From: an uncultured Alphaproteobacteria bacterium
GTDB taxonomy: Bacteria > Pseudomonadota > Alphaproteobacteria > Geminicoccales > Geminicoccaceae
Direction: 5' to 3'
NCBI GenBank assembly: GCA_963787265.1
Contig: CAWBCX010000050.1
Location: forward strand, 118,583-182,582
Length of the DNA: 64,000 nt
Positions 5,511 to 40,094 of the stretch are shown one piece after another. The position numbers and the translations under genes are program-made. The notes beneath the pieces were generated by a model. The model was not told where the DNA came from. It ran no database searches and saw nothing but the letters and a program-made list of their open reading frames with translations. Position 1 is the first letter of the stretch, and every line of letters starts with the position of its first letter.

Positions 5511-6046
5511 TCAGCCGGAACAGGCCGCGACCATGGCGTTGTACGCTTTGGTGAAGCCAAGGAGCGAATAGGTATCTTTCGAGGATGTTCTCTTGCTCGA
5601 TTCGCCTTCCACGATCATGGCTTCTCCTTGACGCATGGCGTCGATCAAGGCGCGGTCTTCGTCGTCATTCTTCGTCCAGGCATGAGGCCCTCCACGCGTG
5701 AACAACGTGAAGACCTTCCCGCCGACAGACACCGAAACATTGCTGCCTTCAAGGTAATTGTAGCCGGGCTGGACACTGACTTCATCGGTCACCGCCGGCA
5801 CTGGCCGCCTGGCAACGAGCACCGCGGGCTTGCCGCGTCTGCGTGTAGTCGCCGGTCTGTTTCTTCGGCTCGCTGACAATGAAGCAGATCTTCTGTCCGT
5901 CTTCATTGACTTCCCAGACGTTCCAGTCGGTATAGCTGCCAAGCGAATAGGGCGTCTGCGCCGAAGCCACAGCGGCAGAAGCATGAACGCCGCAACGAAG
6001 AGACAGGGCGCGTGGAGAGAGGGACAGGAAAGCTTTTCGTCGTCAT
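5511..6046 (-). pseudogene. Invasion-associated locus B (IalB)-family periplasmic protein, two frame breaks (about 5833-5838 and 6028)
   Basis: ORF 5782..5970 ('AQTPYSLGSYTDWNVWEVNEDGQKICFIVSEPKK') and ORF 5511..5984 ('GKPAVLVARRPVPAVTDEVSVQPGYNY...TYSLLGFTKAYNAMVAACSG') join into one IalB-like protein. The signal peptide 'FLSLSPRALSLRCGVHASAAVASAQ' is out of frame with the only upstream ATGs. Confidence 0.65.
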
Positions 6047-32365: not shown

Positions 32366-34255
32366 TCAAAAAGCGCCTTTGGCTTGGAGTTCGGCGACCA
32401 CGAGGTCGGCGGCCTCCTCCGGCGTCATCTGCTCGGTGTGGAGGTGGATCTCCGGGCGTTCCGGCGGCTCGTAGGGCGAAGAGATGCCGGTGAAGTTGGG
32501 GATCTTGCCGTCGCGGGCGCGCTGATAGAGCCCTTTGGGGTCACGCCGTTCGCAGGCCTCGATCGAGGCATCGACGAACACCTCGACGAACTCGTTTTCC
32601 TCGAACAAGTCACGCGCGAGGTTCCGTTCACTTCTGAAGGGCGAGATGAAGGACGCCATCACGATCAGGCCTGCATCCACCATCAGCCTGCCGACCTCGG
32701 CGACGCGCCGGATGTTCTCGACCCGGTCGGCATCGGTGAAGCCGAGGTCCTTGTTCAGACCGTGGCGGACATTGTCGCCATCCAGCAGATAGGTGCGCTT
32801 GCCCAGGCTGTGCAGGCGCTTTTCCACCAGATTGGCGATGGTCGACTTGCCGGCACCGGAAAAGCCGGTGAACCAGAGAAGACAAGGTCTCTGCTGGTTC
32901 ATTTTCGCGCGGGAAATCTTGTCGACATCGACCTCCTGCCACACCAGATTGGTGGCGCGGCGCAGGCCGAAGGCGACCATGCCGGCAGCGACCGTCTGGT
33001 TGGAGACGCGATCGATCAGGATGAAGCCGCCAAGCGCCTTGCTCTCCTTGTAGGGTTCGAACGCGATCGCCTGGTCGAGGTTGAAATTGACGAAGCCGAC
33101 CTCGTTCAGCCCGAGTGTGTTGGCCGCCAGATGCTCGCCGCTATTGACGTCCTCCTTGTATTTCAGCTTGGTCACAGCAGCGCCGATCGTCTTGGTGCCG
33201 AGCTTCAGGAGGTAGGAGCGTTCGGGCAGAAGCTCCGCCTGGTCGTCCATCCAGATGAGATGGGCCGCGAACTGATCAGTGACCGGCACCGAGTTTTCGG
33301 CATCGGCGATCACATCACCGCGCGAGATGTCAATTTCTCGGTCCAGGCAGATGGTCACCGCATCCCCGGCCTCGGCGAAGGGTTGATCACCGTCCATGGT
33401 GACGATCCGGCTGATCTTGGCCTGCTGGCTGCCGGGCTGAACGATCACCGCATCGCCCGGACGCACGCGCCCGCTGGCAACCGTACCGGCATAGCCGCGA
33501 AACGTATGATCCGGCCGGCTGACCCACTGCACCGGGAAGCGAAAGGCTTCGCTAGGCGCAGCCTGCACCTCGACATGTTCCAGATGCTCGAGCAGGGTTG
33601 ACCCATCATACCAGGGCAGGGCCTCGCTTCGAGAAAGCACGTTGTCGCCTTTCAGGGCCGAAAGCGGAATGCTGGTGATGTCCTGAAACTCAAGACCTTG
33701 TTCTTCGACAAATCCCTTGTAGTCCTCGACGATCTCGTCGTAACGAGCCTCGCTGTAGTCGACCAGATCCATCTTGTTGATCGCCAGCACCACGTGGCGG
33801 ATACCCAGGAGATCGGCAATGCGGCTGTGGCGCTTGGTCTGCTTGAGCACGCCCTTGCGCGCATCGATCAAGATGATCGCCAGATCAGCGGTCGAAGCGC
33901 CCGTCGCCATGTTCCGGGTATATTGCTCATGTCCAGGCGTATCGGCGACGATGAATTTCCGATGGGCCGTGGCAAAATACCGATAAGCGACATCGATGGT
34001 GATGCCTTGCTCGCGCTCGGCCTGCAGGCCGTCGACCAGAAGCGCCAGATCGAGCTCGCCATCTTGGGTGCCGTGGAGCTTGCTTTCGGTCTCGAGCGCC
34101 TGCACCTGGTCTTCGAGCAGCAGCTTGGCGTCATAAAGAAGACGGCCGATCAACGTGCTCTTGCCGTCATCGACACTGCCGCAGGTGAGAAAACGAAGCA
34201 GCGATTTTTCCAGAGCAGGCGCGCTCGGCGATTCTTTAAGGGCGGTGACGCTCAT
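32366..34255 (-). CDS. cysNC: Bifunctional sulfate adenylyltransferase subunit 1 / adenylylsulfate kinase (CysN-CysC fusion, NodQ-like)
   Basis: 629-aa ORF with the GTPase motifs 'GSVDDGKSTLIG', 'DTPGHEQYT' and 'NKMD', plus the C-terminal APS kinase P-loop 'GFSGAGKSTIA'. Confidence 0.92.
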   Translation of the reverse strand: MSVTALKESPSAPALEKSLLRFLTCGSVDDGKSTLIGRLLYDAKLLLEDQVQALETESKLHGTQDGELDLALLVDGLQAEREQGITIDVAYRYFATAHRKFIVADTPGHEQYTRNMATGASTADLAIILIDARKGVLKQTKRHSRIADLLGIRHVVLAINKMDLVDYSEARYDEIVEDYKGFVEEQGLEFQDITSIPLSALKGDNVLSRSEALPWYDGSTLLEHLEHVEVQAAPSEAFRFPVQWVSRPDHTFRGYAGTVASGRVRPGDAVIVQPGSQQAKISRIVTMDGDQPFAEAGDAVTICLDREIDISRGDVIADAENSVPVTDQFAAHLIWMDDQAELLPERSYLLKLGTKTIGAAVTKLKYKEDVNSGEHLAANTLGLNEVGFVNFNLDQAIAFEPYKESKALGGFILIDRVSNQTVAAGMVAFGLRRATNLVWQEVDVDKISRAKMNQQRPCLLWFTGFSGAGKSTIANLVEKRLHSLGKRTYLLDGDNVRHGLNKDLGFTDADRVENIRRVAEVGRLMVDAGLIVMASFISPFRSERNLARDLFEENEFVEVFVDASIEACERRDPKGLYQRARDGKIPNFTGISSPYEPPERPEIHLHTEQMTPEEAADLVVAELQAKGAF

Positions 34256-35208
34256 CAGAAATAGCCCTCCTGCTTCTTCTTTTCCATCGACCCCGGCTGA
34301 TCCTTGTCGATCACCCGGCCCTGGCGTTCGGAACTGCGGCTGAGCGCCATTTCCGAGAGCAGATCCTGGAGGTTGGCCGCTTCCGATTCGATCGCACCCG
34401 TGAGCGGATAGCAGCCAAGCGTTCTAAAACGCACCATCTTCATCACCGGCGTTTCGCCGTTCTCCAGCGGCAGCCGATCGTCATCGGCCATAATCCACAT
34501 ACCGTCCCGCCAGACCACCGGGCGCTCCTTGGCAAAATAGAGCGGCACGACCGGGATGTTCTCGATCTCGATATAGCTCCAGATGTCCATCTCGGTCCAG
34601 TTGGAGAGCGGGAACACGCGCACGCTCTCGCCCTTCTGCACGCGACCGTTATAGAGGTTCCAAAGCTCCGGACGCTGGTTTCTCGGATCCCAGGCATGGG
34701 CGCGGTTGCGGAACGAGAAAATCCGCTCCTTCGCGCGGGATTTCTCCTCGTCGCGGCGAGCACCGCCGAAGGCCGCATCGAACTGGTATTTGTCCAGCGC
34801 CTGCTTCAAGGATTGGGTCTTCATCACATCGGTATGCACGGCCGAGCCATGGCTGAACGGTCCCATGCCGGCGGCCACCCCATCCTGATTGATGTGGACC
34901 ATGAGCTCCAGGCCGAGATCCCTGGCACGCTGGTCGCGAAACTCGATCATTTCCCTGAATTTCCAGGTGGTATCGACATGGAGAAGCGGGAACGGCAGCT
35001 TCGCGGGATAAAAGGCCTTGAGCGCCAGATGCAGCAACACCGAGCTGTCCTTGCCGATCGAATACAGCATCACCGGCTTTTGGAAACTTGCAGCAACCTC
35101 GCGGAAAATCTCAACGCTCTCTGCTTCGAGGCGCTTCAAATGGGGGGGCATGACGGATAACCTCGGCTTAAGGTCCGTTTCCGTCTGCTCCATTGCTACT
35201 TTCATCAT
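34255..35208 (-). CDS. cysD: Sulfate adenylyltransferase subunit 2 CysD
   Basis: ORF 34255..35229 with the PAPS-reductase-like motifs '[15 protein letters not shown]' and '[18 protein letters not shown]' and a C-terminal 'KKQEGYF'. Its stop overlaps the cysNC start (TGATG). The start after the GGAGAA RBS is preferred. Confidence 0.92.
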
Positions 35209-35672
35209 TGGTTCTCCGAGAACCGACATGTGCGGTCGCTCGCGTGATTAGTTGGGCGTTACCTGTCATTACAACACCGCCATGTCTAAAGCCCGACGCA
35301 GCTTGGCGTCAACGGCATGGCGAGCCGTAATCCTGGTACATTGACTTGAACAAGCCTGACCAACCAAAATTCCCTGCGCGTCTTCGTGATTCGGAGAAAC
35401 CTCGGAGAACCACGCCGCACAATGTCCGTTCAGACTCATCATGGTGTGGCGAGATCGGCAAGCCGTCATTCAAGCTCAGCCGACATCGCCAGACCATGCA
35501 CGAAATGCTCTTTTTTGTCCATAAACCGCCGGGGATTTGTTTCGTTATGCCTAGACCAGGACAGGCCGGTTGGGACAAGACATAAAGCTGTCGGAGGTTA
35601 CTGGGCGAGAAGGAATATTACCCACTCAATCATGGATAAAGATGTCTCCCTGGAGCCCGCTGACCGGGCGCC

Positions 35673-37166
35673 TCATGTCAGGGCGCCAACCTTGGCAATA
35701 GCGGGTTCAGCGGACGTCGCCGAGGCGGCCAGGTGATCATTGATCGCCATCACACCGGCCCCGCCATCGAAACCGACCTCGATCGACAACGCGCCGACAG
35801 CGGATGCTGTTGCCTTGGCAGTCTGGCTTGCCGCCAGATCCTCGGTTGCCTTGGCCATGAGGGCCTTGATCGCCAATGGCGGCAGGTCGCGATGACACTC
35901 CCTCAACACCGCGATCATGCTCGCTGCAAGGGGAAAGGAAGCCTGATCCACATCGCACCAGGCCCACCCTTCGTCCGTTGCCCCGGCACCCCCCGCCTTG
36001 CCCATGCTGCAAAGGGCCGAGCCCGGCTGGGAAGGATGCGTGAAGGCCAGCCCCATCGATCCCCCCTCCGCCTTCCCGGCCTGGCTCCAAAAATCAGGCA
36101 CATGACGTCCGGGGTAAAGGCTGCTGGCAACGGAGGATCCACGCGCCCTGGCCGTTTCGCTTGCAGCGGCCACGCCACCGGCCTTTGCCGCCCCGATGGC
36201 AATCACATCCGGATGTGATGCCGGAAAACTCTGCCAAGTTCGAGGCGCCGTTGCGACCACCAAAATCCCCTCCGCCGCTGCTCGTGCCATTGTCACTTCG
36301 AGAAGTCGAAGATAATTGTGCAGGTTCAAATCGTCGGCTTTCAGCTGATCCCAGCCGACTTGATCGACATCATAGCCCCAGCTGTTGATGATCAAGTCGG
36401 GCTTGGGGAGCGAATCGATCGTGATCAGCATGTCGCCGACCGGGTCGATCAGGCCCTTGATCGGCCGCAAGCGCAGATCGGGCGCGGCTGCAAACAGGCA
36501 GGCCGCCTCACCCGTGCCATGACCATGATCATCCCGAAGCGAATCCGTCTGGTTCGGGCCAAGCAAGGTCGGCAGAACCCGGTAACGTCGCTCGGCAAAA
36601 AAACGATGCCGATAGTGGCCCGTACCGATCAAGGCGGCAACGACGCCATCACCAGTCGCATCGAACGAGGCCAGACCATCGCCCCAGATCGACATGGCAA
36701 GCTCATCGGGCAAGCATCGGCCCGTCTCGCAACCATCGTTCACACCTCGAACCGGCAGGCCGGCATCGTCGGTCAGCCTTGGCGGACAGGCGATAGCAAT
36801 ACCTTCCGCACACCCCGCAAAAGCGCTCGGCAAGTCCAGAAGACGGGGTGTATCGTCTTCATCCGGTGCATAGACATCAATGGAGCGGCCGCGCCCCCCG
36901 GGTTTCGTGGTCTTGCGCAGCCTTACGCCGAAAGCGTCCCTGAATTGCGCCGGCGTGCCGTTGAACGATAGGGCGACGGAATGAAAGTTCGTGATGTCAA
37001 AACCCAGCTGGATCAGGGTATCGGCGACGTGCCGCGCGTCCTCGAGACAAGACGCGAAGGCGCCGGCGCGAGCTGCATCAATCGGCCCCTTCGGATCGAA
37101 CACGGACAAGCCGCCCATCGATCGCATCGAGACAACCGCACCAACGCGCTCGCTAGTCCCCAACAT
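35673..37166 (-). CDS. Subtilisin (S8)-like protein without a signal peptide; the canonical Asp position reads Gly
   Basis: ORF 35673..37172. 'DDHGHGTGEAA' matches the His motif, 'INSWGY' the Asn motif and 'QASFPLAASMIAV' the Ser motif. The expected 'V-A-x-I-D-T-G' reads 'AALIGTGH' (codon GGT at 36624..36626). The ATG at 37166 follows a GAGGAG RBS. Confidence 0.6.
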   Translation of the reverse strand: MLGTSERVGAVVSMRSMGGLSVFDPKGPIDAARAGAFASCLEDARHVADTLIQLGFDITNFHSVALSFNGTPAQFRDAFGVRLRKTTKPGGRGRSIDVYAPDEDDTPRLLDLPSAFAGCAEGIAIACPPRLTDDAGLPVRGVNDGCETGRCLPDELAMSIWGDGLASFDATGDGVVAALIGTGHYRHRFFAERRYRVLPTLLGPNQTDSLRDDHGHGTGEAACLFAAAPDLRLRPIKGLIDPVGDMLITIDSLPKPDLIINSWGYDVDQVGWDQLKADDLNLHNYLRLLEVTMARAAAEGILVVATAPRTWQSFPASHPDVIAIGAAKAGGVAAASETARARGSSVASSLYPGRHVPDFWSQAGKAEGGSMGLAFTHPSQPGSALCSMGKAGGAGATDEGWAWCDVDQASFPLAASMIAVLRECHRDLPPLAIKALMAKATEDLAASQTAKATASAVGALSIEVGFDGGAGVMAINDHLAASATSAEPAIAKVGALT

Positions 37167-37371
37167 GCTCAACTCCTCTTGGAAAAATCACCATGACGCC
37201 CTTGCCGCCGACGGTCAGGCCATCGATCCGCAGGCGTGATGGTGATAAACCAAAATGCATATATTTGCCATGTTGATTTCTCTTTTTAGTTGATTTACGT
37301 TCCTGCGAATTTTCCTTCTGATCCTTGCCCGTCAAGCACGAAATCGAACGATAGCTCGCCTTTGATCTGCC

Positions 37372-37409
37372 AAAAAAAAGAACCCAGAAGATCATCTTCC
37401 GGGTTCTTC
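37372..37409 (-). terminator. Rho-independent terminator (second of a tandem pair) after the CNPC-repeat gene
   Basis: On the minus strand, 'agaacccggaag-atgat-cttctgggttct' is followed by T8. Confidence 0.7.
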
Positions 37410-37416
37410 TCGATAC

Positions 37417-37440
37417 AAAAAAAGCGTCGCGGCGACGCTT
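37417..37440 (-). terminator. Rho-independent terminator (first of a tandem pair) after the CNPC-repeat gene
   Basis: On the minus strand, 'agcgtcgc-c-gcgacgct' is followed by T7, starting about 10 nt after the stop codon. Confidence 0.75.
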
Positions 37441-37449
37441 CGGCAATCG

Positions 37450-37812
37450 TCAGTTGGCGGCGGGCTTGCAGGGATTACACGGGTTGCAAGGATTACAGGG
37501 GTTCGCAGCCGCGCAAGGATTGCACGGGTTGCAGGGATTGGCTGCAGCACAGGGATTGCAGGGCTTCTTGATGGCCGCACAGGCAGGATTGCACGGATTG
37601 GCCGCGGCGCAAGGGTTGCAGGGGTTGGCGGCGGCTGCGCAGGGGTTGCACGGATTGCAAGGATTGCACGCAGCCATGGCGATACCGCCGAAGCTGATGC
37701 CGCCCTGGCTGCCGCTGACACCGTCGGATGCCGTCGGGCTCAGCATCATCATGCCGCCGAACGCAAGGCTGAGACAGGTGGTGGATAGAAGGCGACTTTT
37801 CTGCTGTTTCAT
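37450..37812 (-). CDS. Secreted cysteine-rich (C-N-P-C)n tandem-repeat peptide; no family assignment
   Basis: ORF 37450..37833. The ATG at 37812 lies 6 nt after a GGAGAGG RBS. The Sec-type signal is '[24 protein letters not shown]'. The C-terminal ~73 aa contain 17 Cys and 14 N-P-C triplets with Ala spacers. Repeat units differ by synonymous codons, and tandem terminators follow. Confidence 0.7.
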
Positions 37813-38099
37813 GAAAACCTCTCCAAATCTCATTGATGAACGCCGACCGCAGCCGAAGATGGTTGACGGATCGGCCTAACGACACCTTATCCATGGACGG
37901 AGCTAAATCTAGGCTCGATGGCGCGAGACGCGGTCACGTCTTGTTCACGATCCGGTCAGACGGTCGTGCTGACAGTTCATGGGATGTGCGCCCCGCACTC
38001 GGTTCGTGCTAATGAGCATCGGGTGGCCGACTGAAGGCTGCATCCGGCGTCGCATTCGACTACGCTGCGCATCTGGCCCGGCAGGTGGGAGAGAGATGC

Positions 38100-38848
38100 A
38101 TGACGTTACCCGAAGCGGCGCCCAAACCCGATCAATCCTGGCTCGACGACTACCCGAACGAAACCCTGGAAGCGATGCTCGAGGCTGGCCGCGAGGCGCT
38201 CGAATGGCGGCGCATTCTGACCAAGAGCGGCGACAACATCGTTGGCGACGTCATCAAGCACGAAGGGCCGTTCTACATCCTCGACCATTATCCCAAGGGC
38301 GATGTCTATGATCCGGAGAGCCATGCACAGTGGTACTATCACGCCCATGACAAGAGCGAGCGCCCGGGCGAGCACGGCCATTTCCACACCTTCATGCGCG
38401 GCCGCGGCATGGATGATGGCAGTCAATCCGGTGTCCGCTGCCCGACTATCAGCCGAAATCGGATCCCCATGACCTCATTTGCCATCTGATCGCGGTCTCG
38501 ATGGACAAGAGCGGTTGGCCGGTCGGGCTTTTCACCACCAATCGCTGGGTCACCGGCGAAACCTGGTACGCCGCCCACGACGTCTGCTCGATGCTGGACG
38601 GATTCGACATGAAGATGTCCAAGTCGTCCTGGCCGGTAAACCGCTGGCTGACGGCGATGATCAAACTGTTCCAGCCGCAAATCATCGAACTCGTCGTGCA
38701 GCGCGACGAGCGCATCACCGCGTGGAAGATGAAGCACCCCGATATCAATGTCTATGAGGACCGAAAGCTCGAGGTTACCTCCCAGCTGCCCATCAGCGTC
38801 GACCACCAGGTCGCCCTCCTCGAAGACGCCTTGGAGGCGCGGGCTTGA
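38100..38848 (+). pseudogene. Conserved hypothetical protein (His-rich 'YYHAHDKSERPGEHGHFHTF'); one frame break near 38417-38440
   Basis: ORF 38085..38489 and ORF 38501..38848 join through the second frame as '...PDYQPKSDPHDLICHLIAVSMDKSGWPVGLFTTNRWVTGETWY'. The ATG at 38100 follows a GGGAGAGAG RBS. Confidence 0.55.
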
Positions 38849-38915: not shown

Positions 38916-40094
38916 ATGACGGCCGCAACAGCATCGGCGCTTCGCCAGCAGCAATGGCCGGTGGTCATGGCAGGGCTCGCCTGCTGACCGCGGGCGCGGC
39001 TCGTCCTTGGCGGTGACAGCTGGCGTTATGCAGCCCTGCTGCTGATCGGCGGTCTTCTCGGCATGAGCCTTTATCACGCCGCCTTCGGCTTCACGTCCGC
39101 CTACCGCAACGCCATCGTCCGCAAAGACATCGCCGGCATCACGGCGCAGCTGGTGATGATCGGCCTCGCCATGCTGATGTTCGCGCCCTTCCTCGCAAGC
39201 GGCGAAGCATTCGGCCGGCCGATCGGCGGCGCCGTGGCACCCGCTGGCGTTCGCGTTGCCATCGGCAGCTTCGTCTTCGGCCTCGGCATGCAGCTCGGCA
39301 GCGGCTGCGGCTCAGGCACGCTGTATACGGTCGGCGGCGGCAGCACCCGCATGATCGTCACCCTGATCGCCTTTTGTACCGGTGCCTTTCTCGGCAGCCT
39401 GGATAGCTTCCAGCTTCCCGCCCTGCCAAGCCTGGGCGCCGTGTCCTTCGGCAAGACCTTCGGTTGGCCGCTTGCCATTTTTCTCGCAAACAGCCCTGCT
39501 CGCAGCGATCTGGTTCGCCTTCCGTTGGTGGGCGGGTGCCCGCCCGCAAAGGTCGATTTGGGGGGATGGCCTGAACGCGGAAAAACTGCTGCGCGGTCCC
39601 TGGCCACTTCTGTTCAGCGCCGTCATGCTCGCCGTTCTCAACCTCCTGACCCTGTTCGTCGCCGGCCACCCCTGGACGGTCACGTGGGCTTTCACCTTAT
39701 GGGCGGCCGAGGTCGCCCAGACGCTTTCGGCTGGGACCCCGCATCAACCAGCTTTTGGAGCGGAGGCTTTCCCGGCCGCGCCCTCGAAGGCAGTCTCTTT
39801 CAAGACAATATCACCCTCATGAACATCGGGATCATGCTGGGCGCGCTTATCGCTGCCGGCGCCGCCGGTCGGTTTGCCCCGACCCTCAAGATCCCGTTCC
39901 GTTCCCTCCTCGCCGCCATCATCGGCGGCCTCCTCATGGGCTACGGCGCAAGGCTCGGCTTCGGCTGCAACATCGGCGCTTTCTTCTCAGGTGCGGCCTC
40001 TTTCAGCCTGCACGCCTGGATCTGGATCGCTTGTGCGTTTGCCGGCACCTGGATCGGCGTGAAGCTCCGGCCCTGGTTCGGCTTGCCGAATTGA
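38916..40094 (+). pseudogene. yeeE: YeeE/YedE-family sulfur-compound (thiosulfate) transporter with an in-frame TGA (38985..38987) and a frame excursion between about 39486 and 39728
   Basis: Both halves carry the family motif 'GSGCGSG' / 'GFGCNIG'. The residues between 39486 and 39728 make a sensible TM sequence only in the frame of ORF 39382..39822 ('QTALLAAIWFAFRWW...LLTLFVAGHPWTVTWAFTLW'). Confidence 0.7.

Follow-up and report, generated by a model that had tools for sequence, protein, structure and literature searches.

Oxazolins (Buf_EGKCG) and bufferins (Buf1/DUF2282 and Buf2) are periplasmic copper-binding peptides that are ribosomally synthesised and post-translationally modified (RiPPs), the modification being carried out by MNIO enzymes (PMC12452194, PMC11626156). 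Here, we describe a gene located in a 64,000-nt stretch of the genome of a Geminicoccaceae bacterium (GCA_963787265.1, contig CAWBCX010000050.1, positions 118,583-182,582 of the forward strand; hereafter, the window). The gene is genuine, and its product is an exported, disordered peptide with 17 Cys in Asn-Pro-Cys (NPC) repeats. This peptide belongs to an undescribed family of (Asn-Pro-Cys)n arrays comprising more than 500 clusters, which occur either on their own or joined to periplasmic haem proteins. Its closest known counterparts are the Sec-exported Cys-repeat metallophore precursors (oxazolins and bufferins), together with the metallothioneins; only the design principle is common to them, and the peptide fell outside every group examined that is defined by a sequence signature or by partner enzymes.

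As in oxazolins and bufferins, an N-terminal Sec signal replaces the leader peptide, short Cys repeats occur in variable number, and the products vary in size, the smallest being peptides and the largest proteins several hundred residues long that contain dozens of Cys. Fusion to, or co-location with, cytochrome c, FGE-sulfatase and oxidored_molyb domains is occasionally observed, and the gene of a cytoplasmic metalloprotein adjoins the precursor gene. However, there is no sequence similarity between these systems, and NPC units take the place of EGKCG or of the 4/6-Cys bufferin domains. The signatures of DUF2282, Buf2 (6/12 Cys) and EGKCG were absent from the peptide, whose repeats follow the pattern NPC(NPC)AA(A/K); Pfam and NCBIfam scans gave no usable match and hold no model for the family. 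No MNIO (DUF692), DUF2063 or DoxX gene was detected in the sampled loci, as judged from the Pfam lists of related loci and the annotated neighbour clusters of the 80 and 49 loci described below. The partner is instead DUF6969 (PF22308), which has a different fold, and the neighbours in the window are a subtilase-like gene, DUF6969, YeeE and cysDN.

Classical metallothioneins are characterized by a low mass, a high Cys content, scarce aromatic residues and His, and metal-thiolate clusters. Both the tail of the peptide and the family as a whole have this composition: like SmtA/BmtA and the phytochelatins, they are small, contain more than 20% Cys but no aromatics or His, show CxxC spacing and are predicted to be disordered without ligand. 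Unlike metallothioneins, NPC peptides are secreted rather than cytosolic, carry Asn-Pro before Cys, essentially lack CxC and CC motifs and are often fused to haem domains. With no Pfam match, no His, a signal peptide and predicted disorder, the peptide does not belong to the SmtA/BmtA family. Csp1 and Csp3 likewise present many Cys thiolates, and Csp1 is exported to the periplasm; these proteins are four-helix bundles, with Tat export, whereas the NPC tail has a Pro at every third residue, follows a Sec-type signal and is modelled by AlphaFold with no helices. Sponges of the PcoE/SilE type use Met/His ligands and are encoded in metal-resistance operons. They are also small, secreted and disordered, with repeated ligand motifs; the NPC peptide differs in using Cys and in its sulfur and haem context. 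Finally, no maturase-type radical-SAM family, as would accompany a SCIFF/ranthipeptide, was found in any neighbourhood list, the sole match with a radical-SAM name (PF01964, ThiC_Rad_SAM, about 3 kb from the gene in L088) being the thiamine biosynthesis enzyme ThiC. The original prediction, made from the DNA letters, had been unable to place the peptide in a named family, and this assessment holds, since the defining features of SmtA-type metallothioneins, bufferins, SCIFF and Csp are all lacking.

The peptide gene and the NPC repeat family

The peptide was characterized, from the N- to the C-terminus, by an n-region (MKQQKSR), a 17-residue hydrophobic core, a Gly/Ser-rich linker, the conserved pre-repeat element IAMAAC, and a 73-residue repeat tail. 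Counted from the Ala preceding the first tail Cys, the tail contains 19 Ala, 17 Cys, 17 Pro, 16 Asn, 3 Lys and 1 Ile, with 14 NPC triplets and no His, Phe, Tyr or Trp. The basic n-region and hydrophobic core, which are common to the homologues, were read heuristically as a Sec-type signal on a Cys-containing precursor; from this signal, the peptide is assigned to Sec export and its array is presumably periplasmic. A lipoprotein reading was rejected, as there is no lipobox and the early Cys is replaced by Tyr in orthologues.

The expression signals claimed for the gene, namely a GGAGAGG ribosome-binding site and two consecutive hairpin-plus-T-run terminators, were both found. The joint fold of the terminators reached -39 kcal/mol (z = -6.2), with none of 200 shuffles equally stable. 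An alternative upstream ATG at 37833, which would add MRFGEVF, has no ribosome-binding site, and the extra residues occur in no homologue. A Rfam scan of the whole window gave no matches.

It had also been proposed that the peptide, and not the DNA, is conserved, and the codon and repeat structure agreed with this. Synonymous codons are mixed (AAT 9/AAC 7; CCG 5/CCT 5/CCC 8; TGT 5/TGC 13), and the DNA-level repeats are degenerate (67-88% matches), with periods that are all multiples of 3 (9, 18, 27, 30 and 36). The closest orthologues were found in three Geminicoccales/Geminicoccaceae genomes, where the frame remains open and the differences include in-frame indels. The GC content by codon position was 0.50/0.66/0.72, with a high third position as in neighbouring genes. 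In the six frames of the window, this is the sole open reading frame (ORF) with at least two NPC triplets, and it carries 14, which excludes a chance origin. On the opposite strand, a 141-aa antisense ORF (37454-37879, +) contains GLQGLHG repeats that mirror the NPC repeats; it was also present in L049 and L106, and carries a risk of miscalling. A true antisense gene and a non-coding satellite were both rejected: the indels conserve the frame, the ORF has a signal peptide as well as a ribosome-binding site and terminators, and fusions read through into haem domains in the NPC frame. The claim that a discrete gene codes here for an exported, Cys-rich peptide made of repeats was thus correct. 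The features of the locus are listed in Table 1.

Table 1. Positions of the peptide gene, its signals and the neighbouring features in the window.
Feature	Position	Strand	Basis
(NPC)n peptide coding sequence, 120 aa	37450..37812	-	sequence, counts and codon usage; architecture common to homologues
Ribosome-binding site GGAGAGG	37818..37824	-	read directly; 5 nt before the ATG at 37812
Intrinsic terminator 1 (9-bp G+C-rich stem, 3-nt loop, U7 run)	37414..37441	-	folding
Intrinsic terminator 2 (17-bp stem, 3-nt loop, U8 run)	37372..37411	-	folding
DUF6969 pseudogene, divergent from the peptide gene	38100..38848	+	two Pfam halves, in frame 3 then frame 2; frameshift near 38426-38438
YeeE/TsuA-family sulfur-compound transporter, decayed	38916..40094	+	Sulf_transp and TsuA/YedE models; downstream of DUF6969
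cysD (34255-35229) and cysN/cysC fusion (32366-34255), sulfate activation	32366..35229	-	PAPS_reduct; GTP_EFTU and APS_kinase in orthologous locus
Subtilase-like 499-aa protein, downstream of the terminators	35673..37172	-	Peptidase_S8 E 2.5e-4 (below cut-off); QhpE-like E 1.2e-4
Three direct repeats with 11-bp phasing, TCACG-N6-TCACG-N6-TCAG	37934..37959	.	divergent intergenic region; conserved block in alignment

The gene had been described as an orphan, which proved incorrect. A word-seeded search retrieved 454 homologues at E <= 0.01, and a full hidden Markov model search of 1.84 billion representatives gave 522 clusters (defined at 50% identity) at E <= 0.001, 147 of them at E <= 1e-10; synteny, whose conservation it had been suggested to check, was also conserved among relatives. 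Within the searchable literature, full-text searches found no paper on the repeat or on DUF6969/PF22308, and those on P460 with cysteine-rich proteins and on YeeE with rhodanese and DUF302 returned nothing relevant. Looking up the exact sequences of the window peptide and of its subtilase-like neighbour retrieved no record.

Members of the family share a signal peptide, a short linker, the element [VI]Q[LIV]AAC, and NPC(NPC)AA(A/K) units, often with Asn at the end. Among 101 small members, the number of Cys ranged from 6 to 19, with a median of 13, and was even in 57 and odd in 44. Asn-Pro preceded 82% of these Cys, Cys-Cys spacings were mostly 3 and 6, and CxC and CC motifs were essentially absent. 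The composition was 22% Cys, 22% Ala, 20% Pro, 19% Asn and 7% Lys, with 0.1% His and 0.5% Phe, Tyr and Trp together. Thalassospira members consist of ANPCAANPCAA, with C-x4-C spacing, and thus the conserved unit is NPC and not CxxC, on which the original prediction had relied. Their signal peptides are of several unrelated classes, as would suit generic Sec export; a leader-like "RLLSTT" motif within them was discarded as a conserved element, being present in only 45 of 240 members. AlphaFold, run with a 60-sequence alignment, gave the peptide a mean pLDDT of 46.8, predicting an intrinsically disordered tail.

Fusion partners and gene neighbourhoods

In related loci, the arrays reach 44 NPC units and are followed by a cytochrome P460-family domain at the C-terminus. 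All nine tails of this type matched PF16694 (best E 6.6e-9; the first member was below the cut-off, at 20.3 bits), their sole PDB profile matches were three P460-family structures (E about 0.01), and the CxxCH that marks a P460 domain near its C-terminus was present as an invariant FCxxCH motif. Proteins of 330-440 aa (L039 3461-4714 (-); L022, L017, L087 and L118) exhibited two NPC blocks around a conserved CFVPRLxTAA, followed by the P460 domain; this two-block protein was the commonest repeat form in metagenomes.

Other arrays flank, on one or both sides, a single-haem SoxA/TsdA-like domain (L067 4504-5499 (+); P0017, P0033, P0039, P0060 and P0069). The assignment of this domain is at threshold, with 27.1 bits against PF21342 (cut-off 27) and a weak best PDB match to SoxA (1h31, E 0.023). 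The invariant Cys of its DEMVQFCM motif (6 out of 6 complete sequences) aligns with SoxA Cys114, which we take to be the haem ligand in the SoxAX structure. Fusions of NPC arrays to DM13 and LysM domains were also found. That arrays are joined to folded haem proteins speaks for a periplasmic site of action, in cis with redox chemistry, and weighs against a classical small RiPP.

Gene neighbourhoods were compared in two samples: 80 DUF6969 loci from genomes, 30 of which had an NPC gene within about 2.5 kb, and 49 NPC-centred metagenome loci of at least 4 kb, found with a consensus-repeat query. Among the neighbours that are not fused to the array, DUF6969 ranked first (6 of 11 sampled contexts, with the window included; 30/80 genome loci; 19/49 NPC-centred loci). 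Among the genome loci, YeeE was present in 9 of the 30 with an NPC gene and 1 of the 50 without; the corresponding counts were 18/30 and 11/50 for FGE-sulfatase-like proteins, and 17/30 and 7/50 for class I cytochrome c. Among the 49 metagenome loci, we counted P460 fusions in 29, FGE-like proteins in 13, a periplasmic protein of about 165 aa in 11, YeeE in 10, a histidine kinase in 9, DUF302 in 7, a SoxA-type cytochrome and an FAD oxidoreductase in 6 each, DedA in 5, and a two-domain periplasmic rhodanese in 3. Two further periplasmic proteins, of 144 and 181 aa, occurred in 4 loci, with MsrP in 2 of those and SCO1 in 1.

Three types of context were distinguished: context I, with DUF302, YeeE, (rhodanese), the 165-aa protein, (FGE-like), NPC(-P460) and DUF6969; context II, with DedA, an FAD oxidoreductase, the NPC peptide and a histidine kinase; and context III, with a two-component system, the NPC peptide, two periplasmic proteins, SCO1 and MsrP. 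The divergent DUF6969-YeeE arrangement of the window was kept in the two Geminicoccales-type loci that were looked up. Two loci from more distant relatives have the peptide gene on the same strand as DUF6969, 114-135 nt upstream of it, and one of the two adds a periplasmic rhodanese, YeeE and DUF302 to this pair; a gammaproteobacterial locus combines a SoxA-type cytochrome, DUF6969, a 160-aa periplasmic protein, an NPC peptide and DUF302. Thalassospira lucentensis and T. profundimaris carry genes for the NPC peptide, an FGE-like protein, DUF6969 and cytochrome c.

For context II, DedA (VTT) and a MerA/RclA-related FAD oxidoreductase were observed directly upstream of the peptide gene, with the kinase downstream, in L003 (4571-8912) and L094 (4588-8891). 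In L090 (12081-14388), DedA and the oxidoreductase lie about 4.5 kb downstream of the NPC gene and no kinase was seen. The oxidoreductase was rejected as a mercuric reductase, lacking the C-terminal Cys pair and scoring below the MerA cut-off. For context III, L092 (4998-10036) encodes an OmpR-type two-component system, the NPC peptide, two small Cys-containing periplasmic proteins, SCO1/SenC and MsrP. The periplasmic protein of about 165 aa (L006 6349-6858 (+); L088 6438-6920 (+)) belongs to no Pfam family and shows sub-threshold similarity to cupredoxins; it keeps the Cys position of the copper ligands, but not the His and Met ligands. The FGE-like periplasmic neighbours (L079 4906-5778 (+), L090 9386-10216 (+), L159 8519-9544 (+)) carry a PF03781 domain (E 3.6e-40) in which the two catalytic Cys are not conserved, with CGVC in L079, a single Cys in L090 and none in L159.

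DUF6969 itself is a cytoplasmic protein of about 245 aa, for which more than 5000 clusters were found. Invariant His, Asp and Glu residues lie on adjacent strands (QWYYHAHD, GEHGHFHTF) of a confident model (pLDDT 81, pTM 0.84), and comparison with the PDB gave neither a fold match (best E 1.4) nor a sequence match; a cupin, which the HxH...E motif had suggested, was supported by neither the model nor the fold search. In 50 of the 80 DUF6969 loci, there was no NPC gene within about 6 kb, and with a stricter composition filter no Cys-rich ORFs other than NPC proteins were found near DUF6969. The Azospirillum loci (L020-L065, around position 6001) are among those with no NPC gene within about 6 kb; there, DUF6969 ends a Mla-like ABC transporter operon, with an ABC_trans_aux lipoprotein upstream and DUF2336 after it.

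The window locus is a reduced type I context in which the partner genes have decayed. YeeE carries an in-frame stop near 38985 and frameshifts near 39490 and 39725, in addition to the frameshift in DUF6969, whereas the peptide, subtilase-like, cysD and cysNC genes are intact. Since about 2 kb contain four lesions and some 5.8 kb of flanking genes contain none, local gene decay is more likely than sequencing noise. Consequently, the peptide in this genome either works without the DUF6969-YeeE operon or is a remnant. The cysDN genes adjoin the peptide locus in the window and in two of the three related Geminicoccales/Geminicoccaceae genomes.

The subtilase-like gene was syntenic only in Geminicoccales/Geminicoccaceae genomes, and its involvement is uncertain. 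Gly replaces the catalytic Asp (IGTG, invariant in four orthologues) and there is no signal peptide, so that the product is probably a pseudo-protease. A role as leader protease was rejected on these grounds, together with the lack of the conserved Ser position and the restriction to one lineage. The three direct repeats in the divergent intergenic region were shared with three orthologous loci and occur nowhere else in the window (0.03 chance matches expected; 3 of 100 shuffles reached one match), and may be a binding site for a response-regulator-type factor.

Proposed role and competing explanations

We consider it probable that the family provides an exported, disordered poly-thiol array of variable capacity, acting through its thiolates in the periplasm, either free or tethered to haem domains. 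After export, the array would reside in the periplasm, where its many thiolates would do the chemistry; the number of units would set its capacity, and the same module could be used free, as in the window peptide, or tethered to periplasmic haem domains.

What this array does is a more tentative matter. The original prediction had named a soft-metal buffer, a thiol/disulfide redox buffer and a RiPP precursor; not all of the readings considered here are mutually exclusive. The possibility that we favour, with reserve, is absent from that list: a multi-site acceptor or carrier of thiosulfate-derived or sulfane sulfur. It is the option best supported by genomic context (YeeE, periplasmic rhodanese, SoxA/TsdA-type fusions and the adjacent cysDN). 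The confidently assigned neighbours that are enriched near NPC genes are YeeE-type transporters and a periplasmic rhodanese, and one fusion partner, assigned at threshold, is of the enzyme family in which thiosulfate is coupled to a thiolate. Sulfur import by YeeE-like proteins is documented in an alphaproteobacterium (PMC11582611), and the SoxA family conjugates thiosulfate oxidatively to another thiolate (PMC4423706).

Two routes of loading can be envisaged for such a sulfur carrier. In the first, the Cys-ligated haem of a SoxA/TsdA-type domain, which some relatives carry in fusion with the array, would conjugate thiosulfate oxidatively to the thiolates and pass two electrons to cytochrome c; in the second, a periplasmic rhodanese would transfer sulfane sulfur to the array. 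The loaded carrier may then work alongside a YeeE-type importer and the cytoplasmic, His-rich DUF6969. Each of these chemical steps, like the link with DUF6969, is inferred. The scheme recalls SoxYZ with SoxAX, and TsdA, where a periplasmic thiolate could accept thiosulfate by oxidative conjugation. Relatives carry a SoxA/TsdA-type haem domain whose conserved Cys aligns with the SoxA haem ligand, and YeeE-type transporter genes lie nearby, as with SoxT. Unlike SoxY, a folded Ig-like protein with a single Cys in a C-terminal GGCGG and a SoxZ partner, NPC arrays are disordered and contain 6-44 Cys; neither the GGCGG motif nor a SoxY domain was found in the peptide, and no soxB, soxCD or soxYZ genes were seen in the neighbourhoods.

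Several points weigh against sulfur carriage. The P460 family, which is the commonest fusion partner (29/49 loci), has no known sulfur role, and contexts II (DedA, FAD oxidoreductase and histidine kinase) and III (two-component system, SCO1 and MsrP) lack sulfur genes. The SoxA assignment is based on the weak scores given above, and the known sulfur carriers SoxY (GGCGG), TusA and DsrE do not resemble the NPC peptide. DsbA would be expected to oxidise the CNPC pairs in the periplasm, and the partner DUF6969-YeeE operon consists of pseudogenes in the window. Moreover, the sampled loci are phylogenetically non-independent, so that enrichment p-values overstate the associations.

A rather unlikely alternative is a periplasmic soft-metal buffer, mainly for Cu(I) and possibly for Cd, Zn or Hg, in which a secreted, metallothionein-like thiolate sponge would fold only around metal-thiolate clusters and act as a functional analogue of bufferins and oxazolins. 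The composition suits such a sponge (22% Cys, with Lys and without His or aromatics, disordered without metal), as does the variable number of repeats, which fits a capacity function. The neighbours also recall bufferin and oxazolin clusters, with FGE-like proteins (18/30 and 13/49), class I cytochrome c (17/30), and SCO1 and MsrP in one context; an MNIO survey reported that oxazolin clusters include oxidored_molyb genes and that Buf1|Cytochrom_C|FGE-sulfatase fusions exist (PMC12452194). The recurrent periplasmic protein of about 165 aa adds a weak similarity to cupredoxins. However, every assignment that points to copper is either weak or rare. In the FGE-like proteins, the two catalytic Cu-binding Cys are not conserved, the cupredoxin-like protein keeps the Cys ligand alone and scores below threshold, SCO1 was seen in few loci, and there are no cop, cus or mer genes nearby. 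Free thiols are poor Cu ligands in an oxidising periplasm, where known sponges use Met/His or modified Cys, and YeeE, rhodanese and the SoxA-type fusions would be left unexplained. Binding of Fe-S clusters by CxxCxxC was set aside, being implausible for a Sec substrate.

We regard as improbable a RiPP-like substrate whose NPC cysteines would be modified either before export by DUF6969 or after export by the FGE-like protein, in parallel with the modification of Sec-signal-bearing bufferin and oxazolin precursors by MNIO. In its first form, DUF6969 would be a new cytoplasmic metalloenzyme acting on the Asn-Pro-Cys cysteines of Sec-signal peptides and cytochrome fusions before export, for which the chances are similarly poor. 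The frequency of DUF6969 near NPC genes speaks for it, as do the position of the small NPC gene, often 100-200 nt upstream of DUF6969 on the same strand, like a precursor gene before its enzyme, and the invariant residues of a confidently modelled protein with no fold match in the PDB. Long precursors in which a Sec signal is followed by Cys repeats of variable number also have a precedent (PMC12452194). Against this, most of the sampled DUF6969 loci lack an NPC gene within about 6 kb, several NPC contexts lack DUF6969, the Azospirillum gene ends a Mla-like operon, and in the window DUF6969 is a pseudogene next to an intact peptide gene. No MNIO, DUF2063, radical-SAM or leader-peptidase family was found among the top neighbours, the subtilase-like neighbour lacks the catalytic Asp, and the unrelated classes of signal peptide leave no common leader. 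True FGEs have two catalytic Cu-binding Cys and a CxPxR substrate motif; an FGE acting on a C-x-P motif was likewise rejected, as Thalassospira peptides lack C-x-P and the FGE-like neighbours do not conserve the Cys pair.

The chances are poorer for a sacrificial thiol/disulfide redox buffer of the envelope, coupled to cytochromes, which would scavenge HOCl, H2O2 or NO-derived species or serve as a disulfide reservoir. Some contexts would suit it, with MsrP and a two-component system, the RclA/MerA-related FAD oxidoreductase with DedA, a universal stress protein, or an ECF sigma/anti-sigma pair with AhpC/Redoxin and DsbD_TM. NO or hydroxylamine is bound by domains of the P460 family, and the occurrence of both odd and even numbers of Cys argues against a fixed disulfide architecture. 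Such stress-type contexts are nevertheless in the minority, with none in the window; no dedicated reductant supply is conserved with the family, and the strict Asn-Pro before each Cys and the links with YeeE and rhodanese would not be accounted for. Very improbably, the family is functional elsewhere and the peptide gene of this genome, now partnerless, is a decaying remnant that is no longer useful: the lesions in the adjacent operon and an irregular tail (NPAC, IKKPC) without the CxAECPNPCNPCCPNPC element of the closest relatives are set against an intact ORF with a strong ribosome-binding site, two terminators and 14 retained NPC units, and against the many family members that occur without DUF6969 or YeeE.

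Large arrays of free cysteines are not a known feature of the bacterial periplasm. Each of the few Cys-rich systems recently found to be exported, namely bufferins, oxazolins and Csp1, opened a new line in copper biology. The NPC family comprises more than 500 clusters, a strictly conserved unit of three residues, fusions to three kinds of periplasmic redox domain and a recurrent partner of unknown fold, none of which is annotated or discussed in the searchable literature; its association with DUF6969 gives that protein a first functional lead. If the array binds metal or is modified, the bufferin paradigm would extend beyond MNIO enzymes. Should DUF6969 modify the cysteines, the family would be a second, MNIO-independent class of ribosomally made, thiol-derived periplasmic chelators or carriers, spanning Alpha- and Gammaproteobacteria and Methylomirabilales. 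If the array carries sulfur, the extracytoplasmic sulfur carriers would gain a new type, with a link to import by YeeE-type transporters. Culturable carriers of the family, such as Thalassospira, make its function directly testable.

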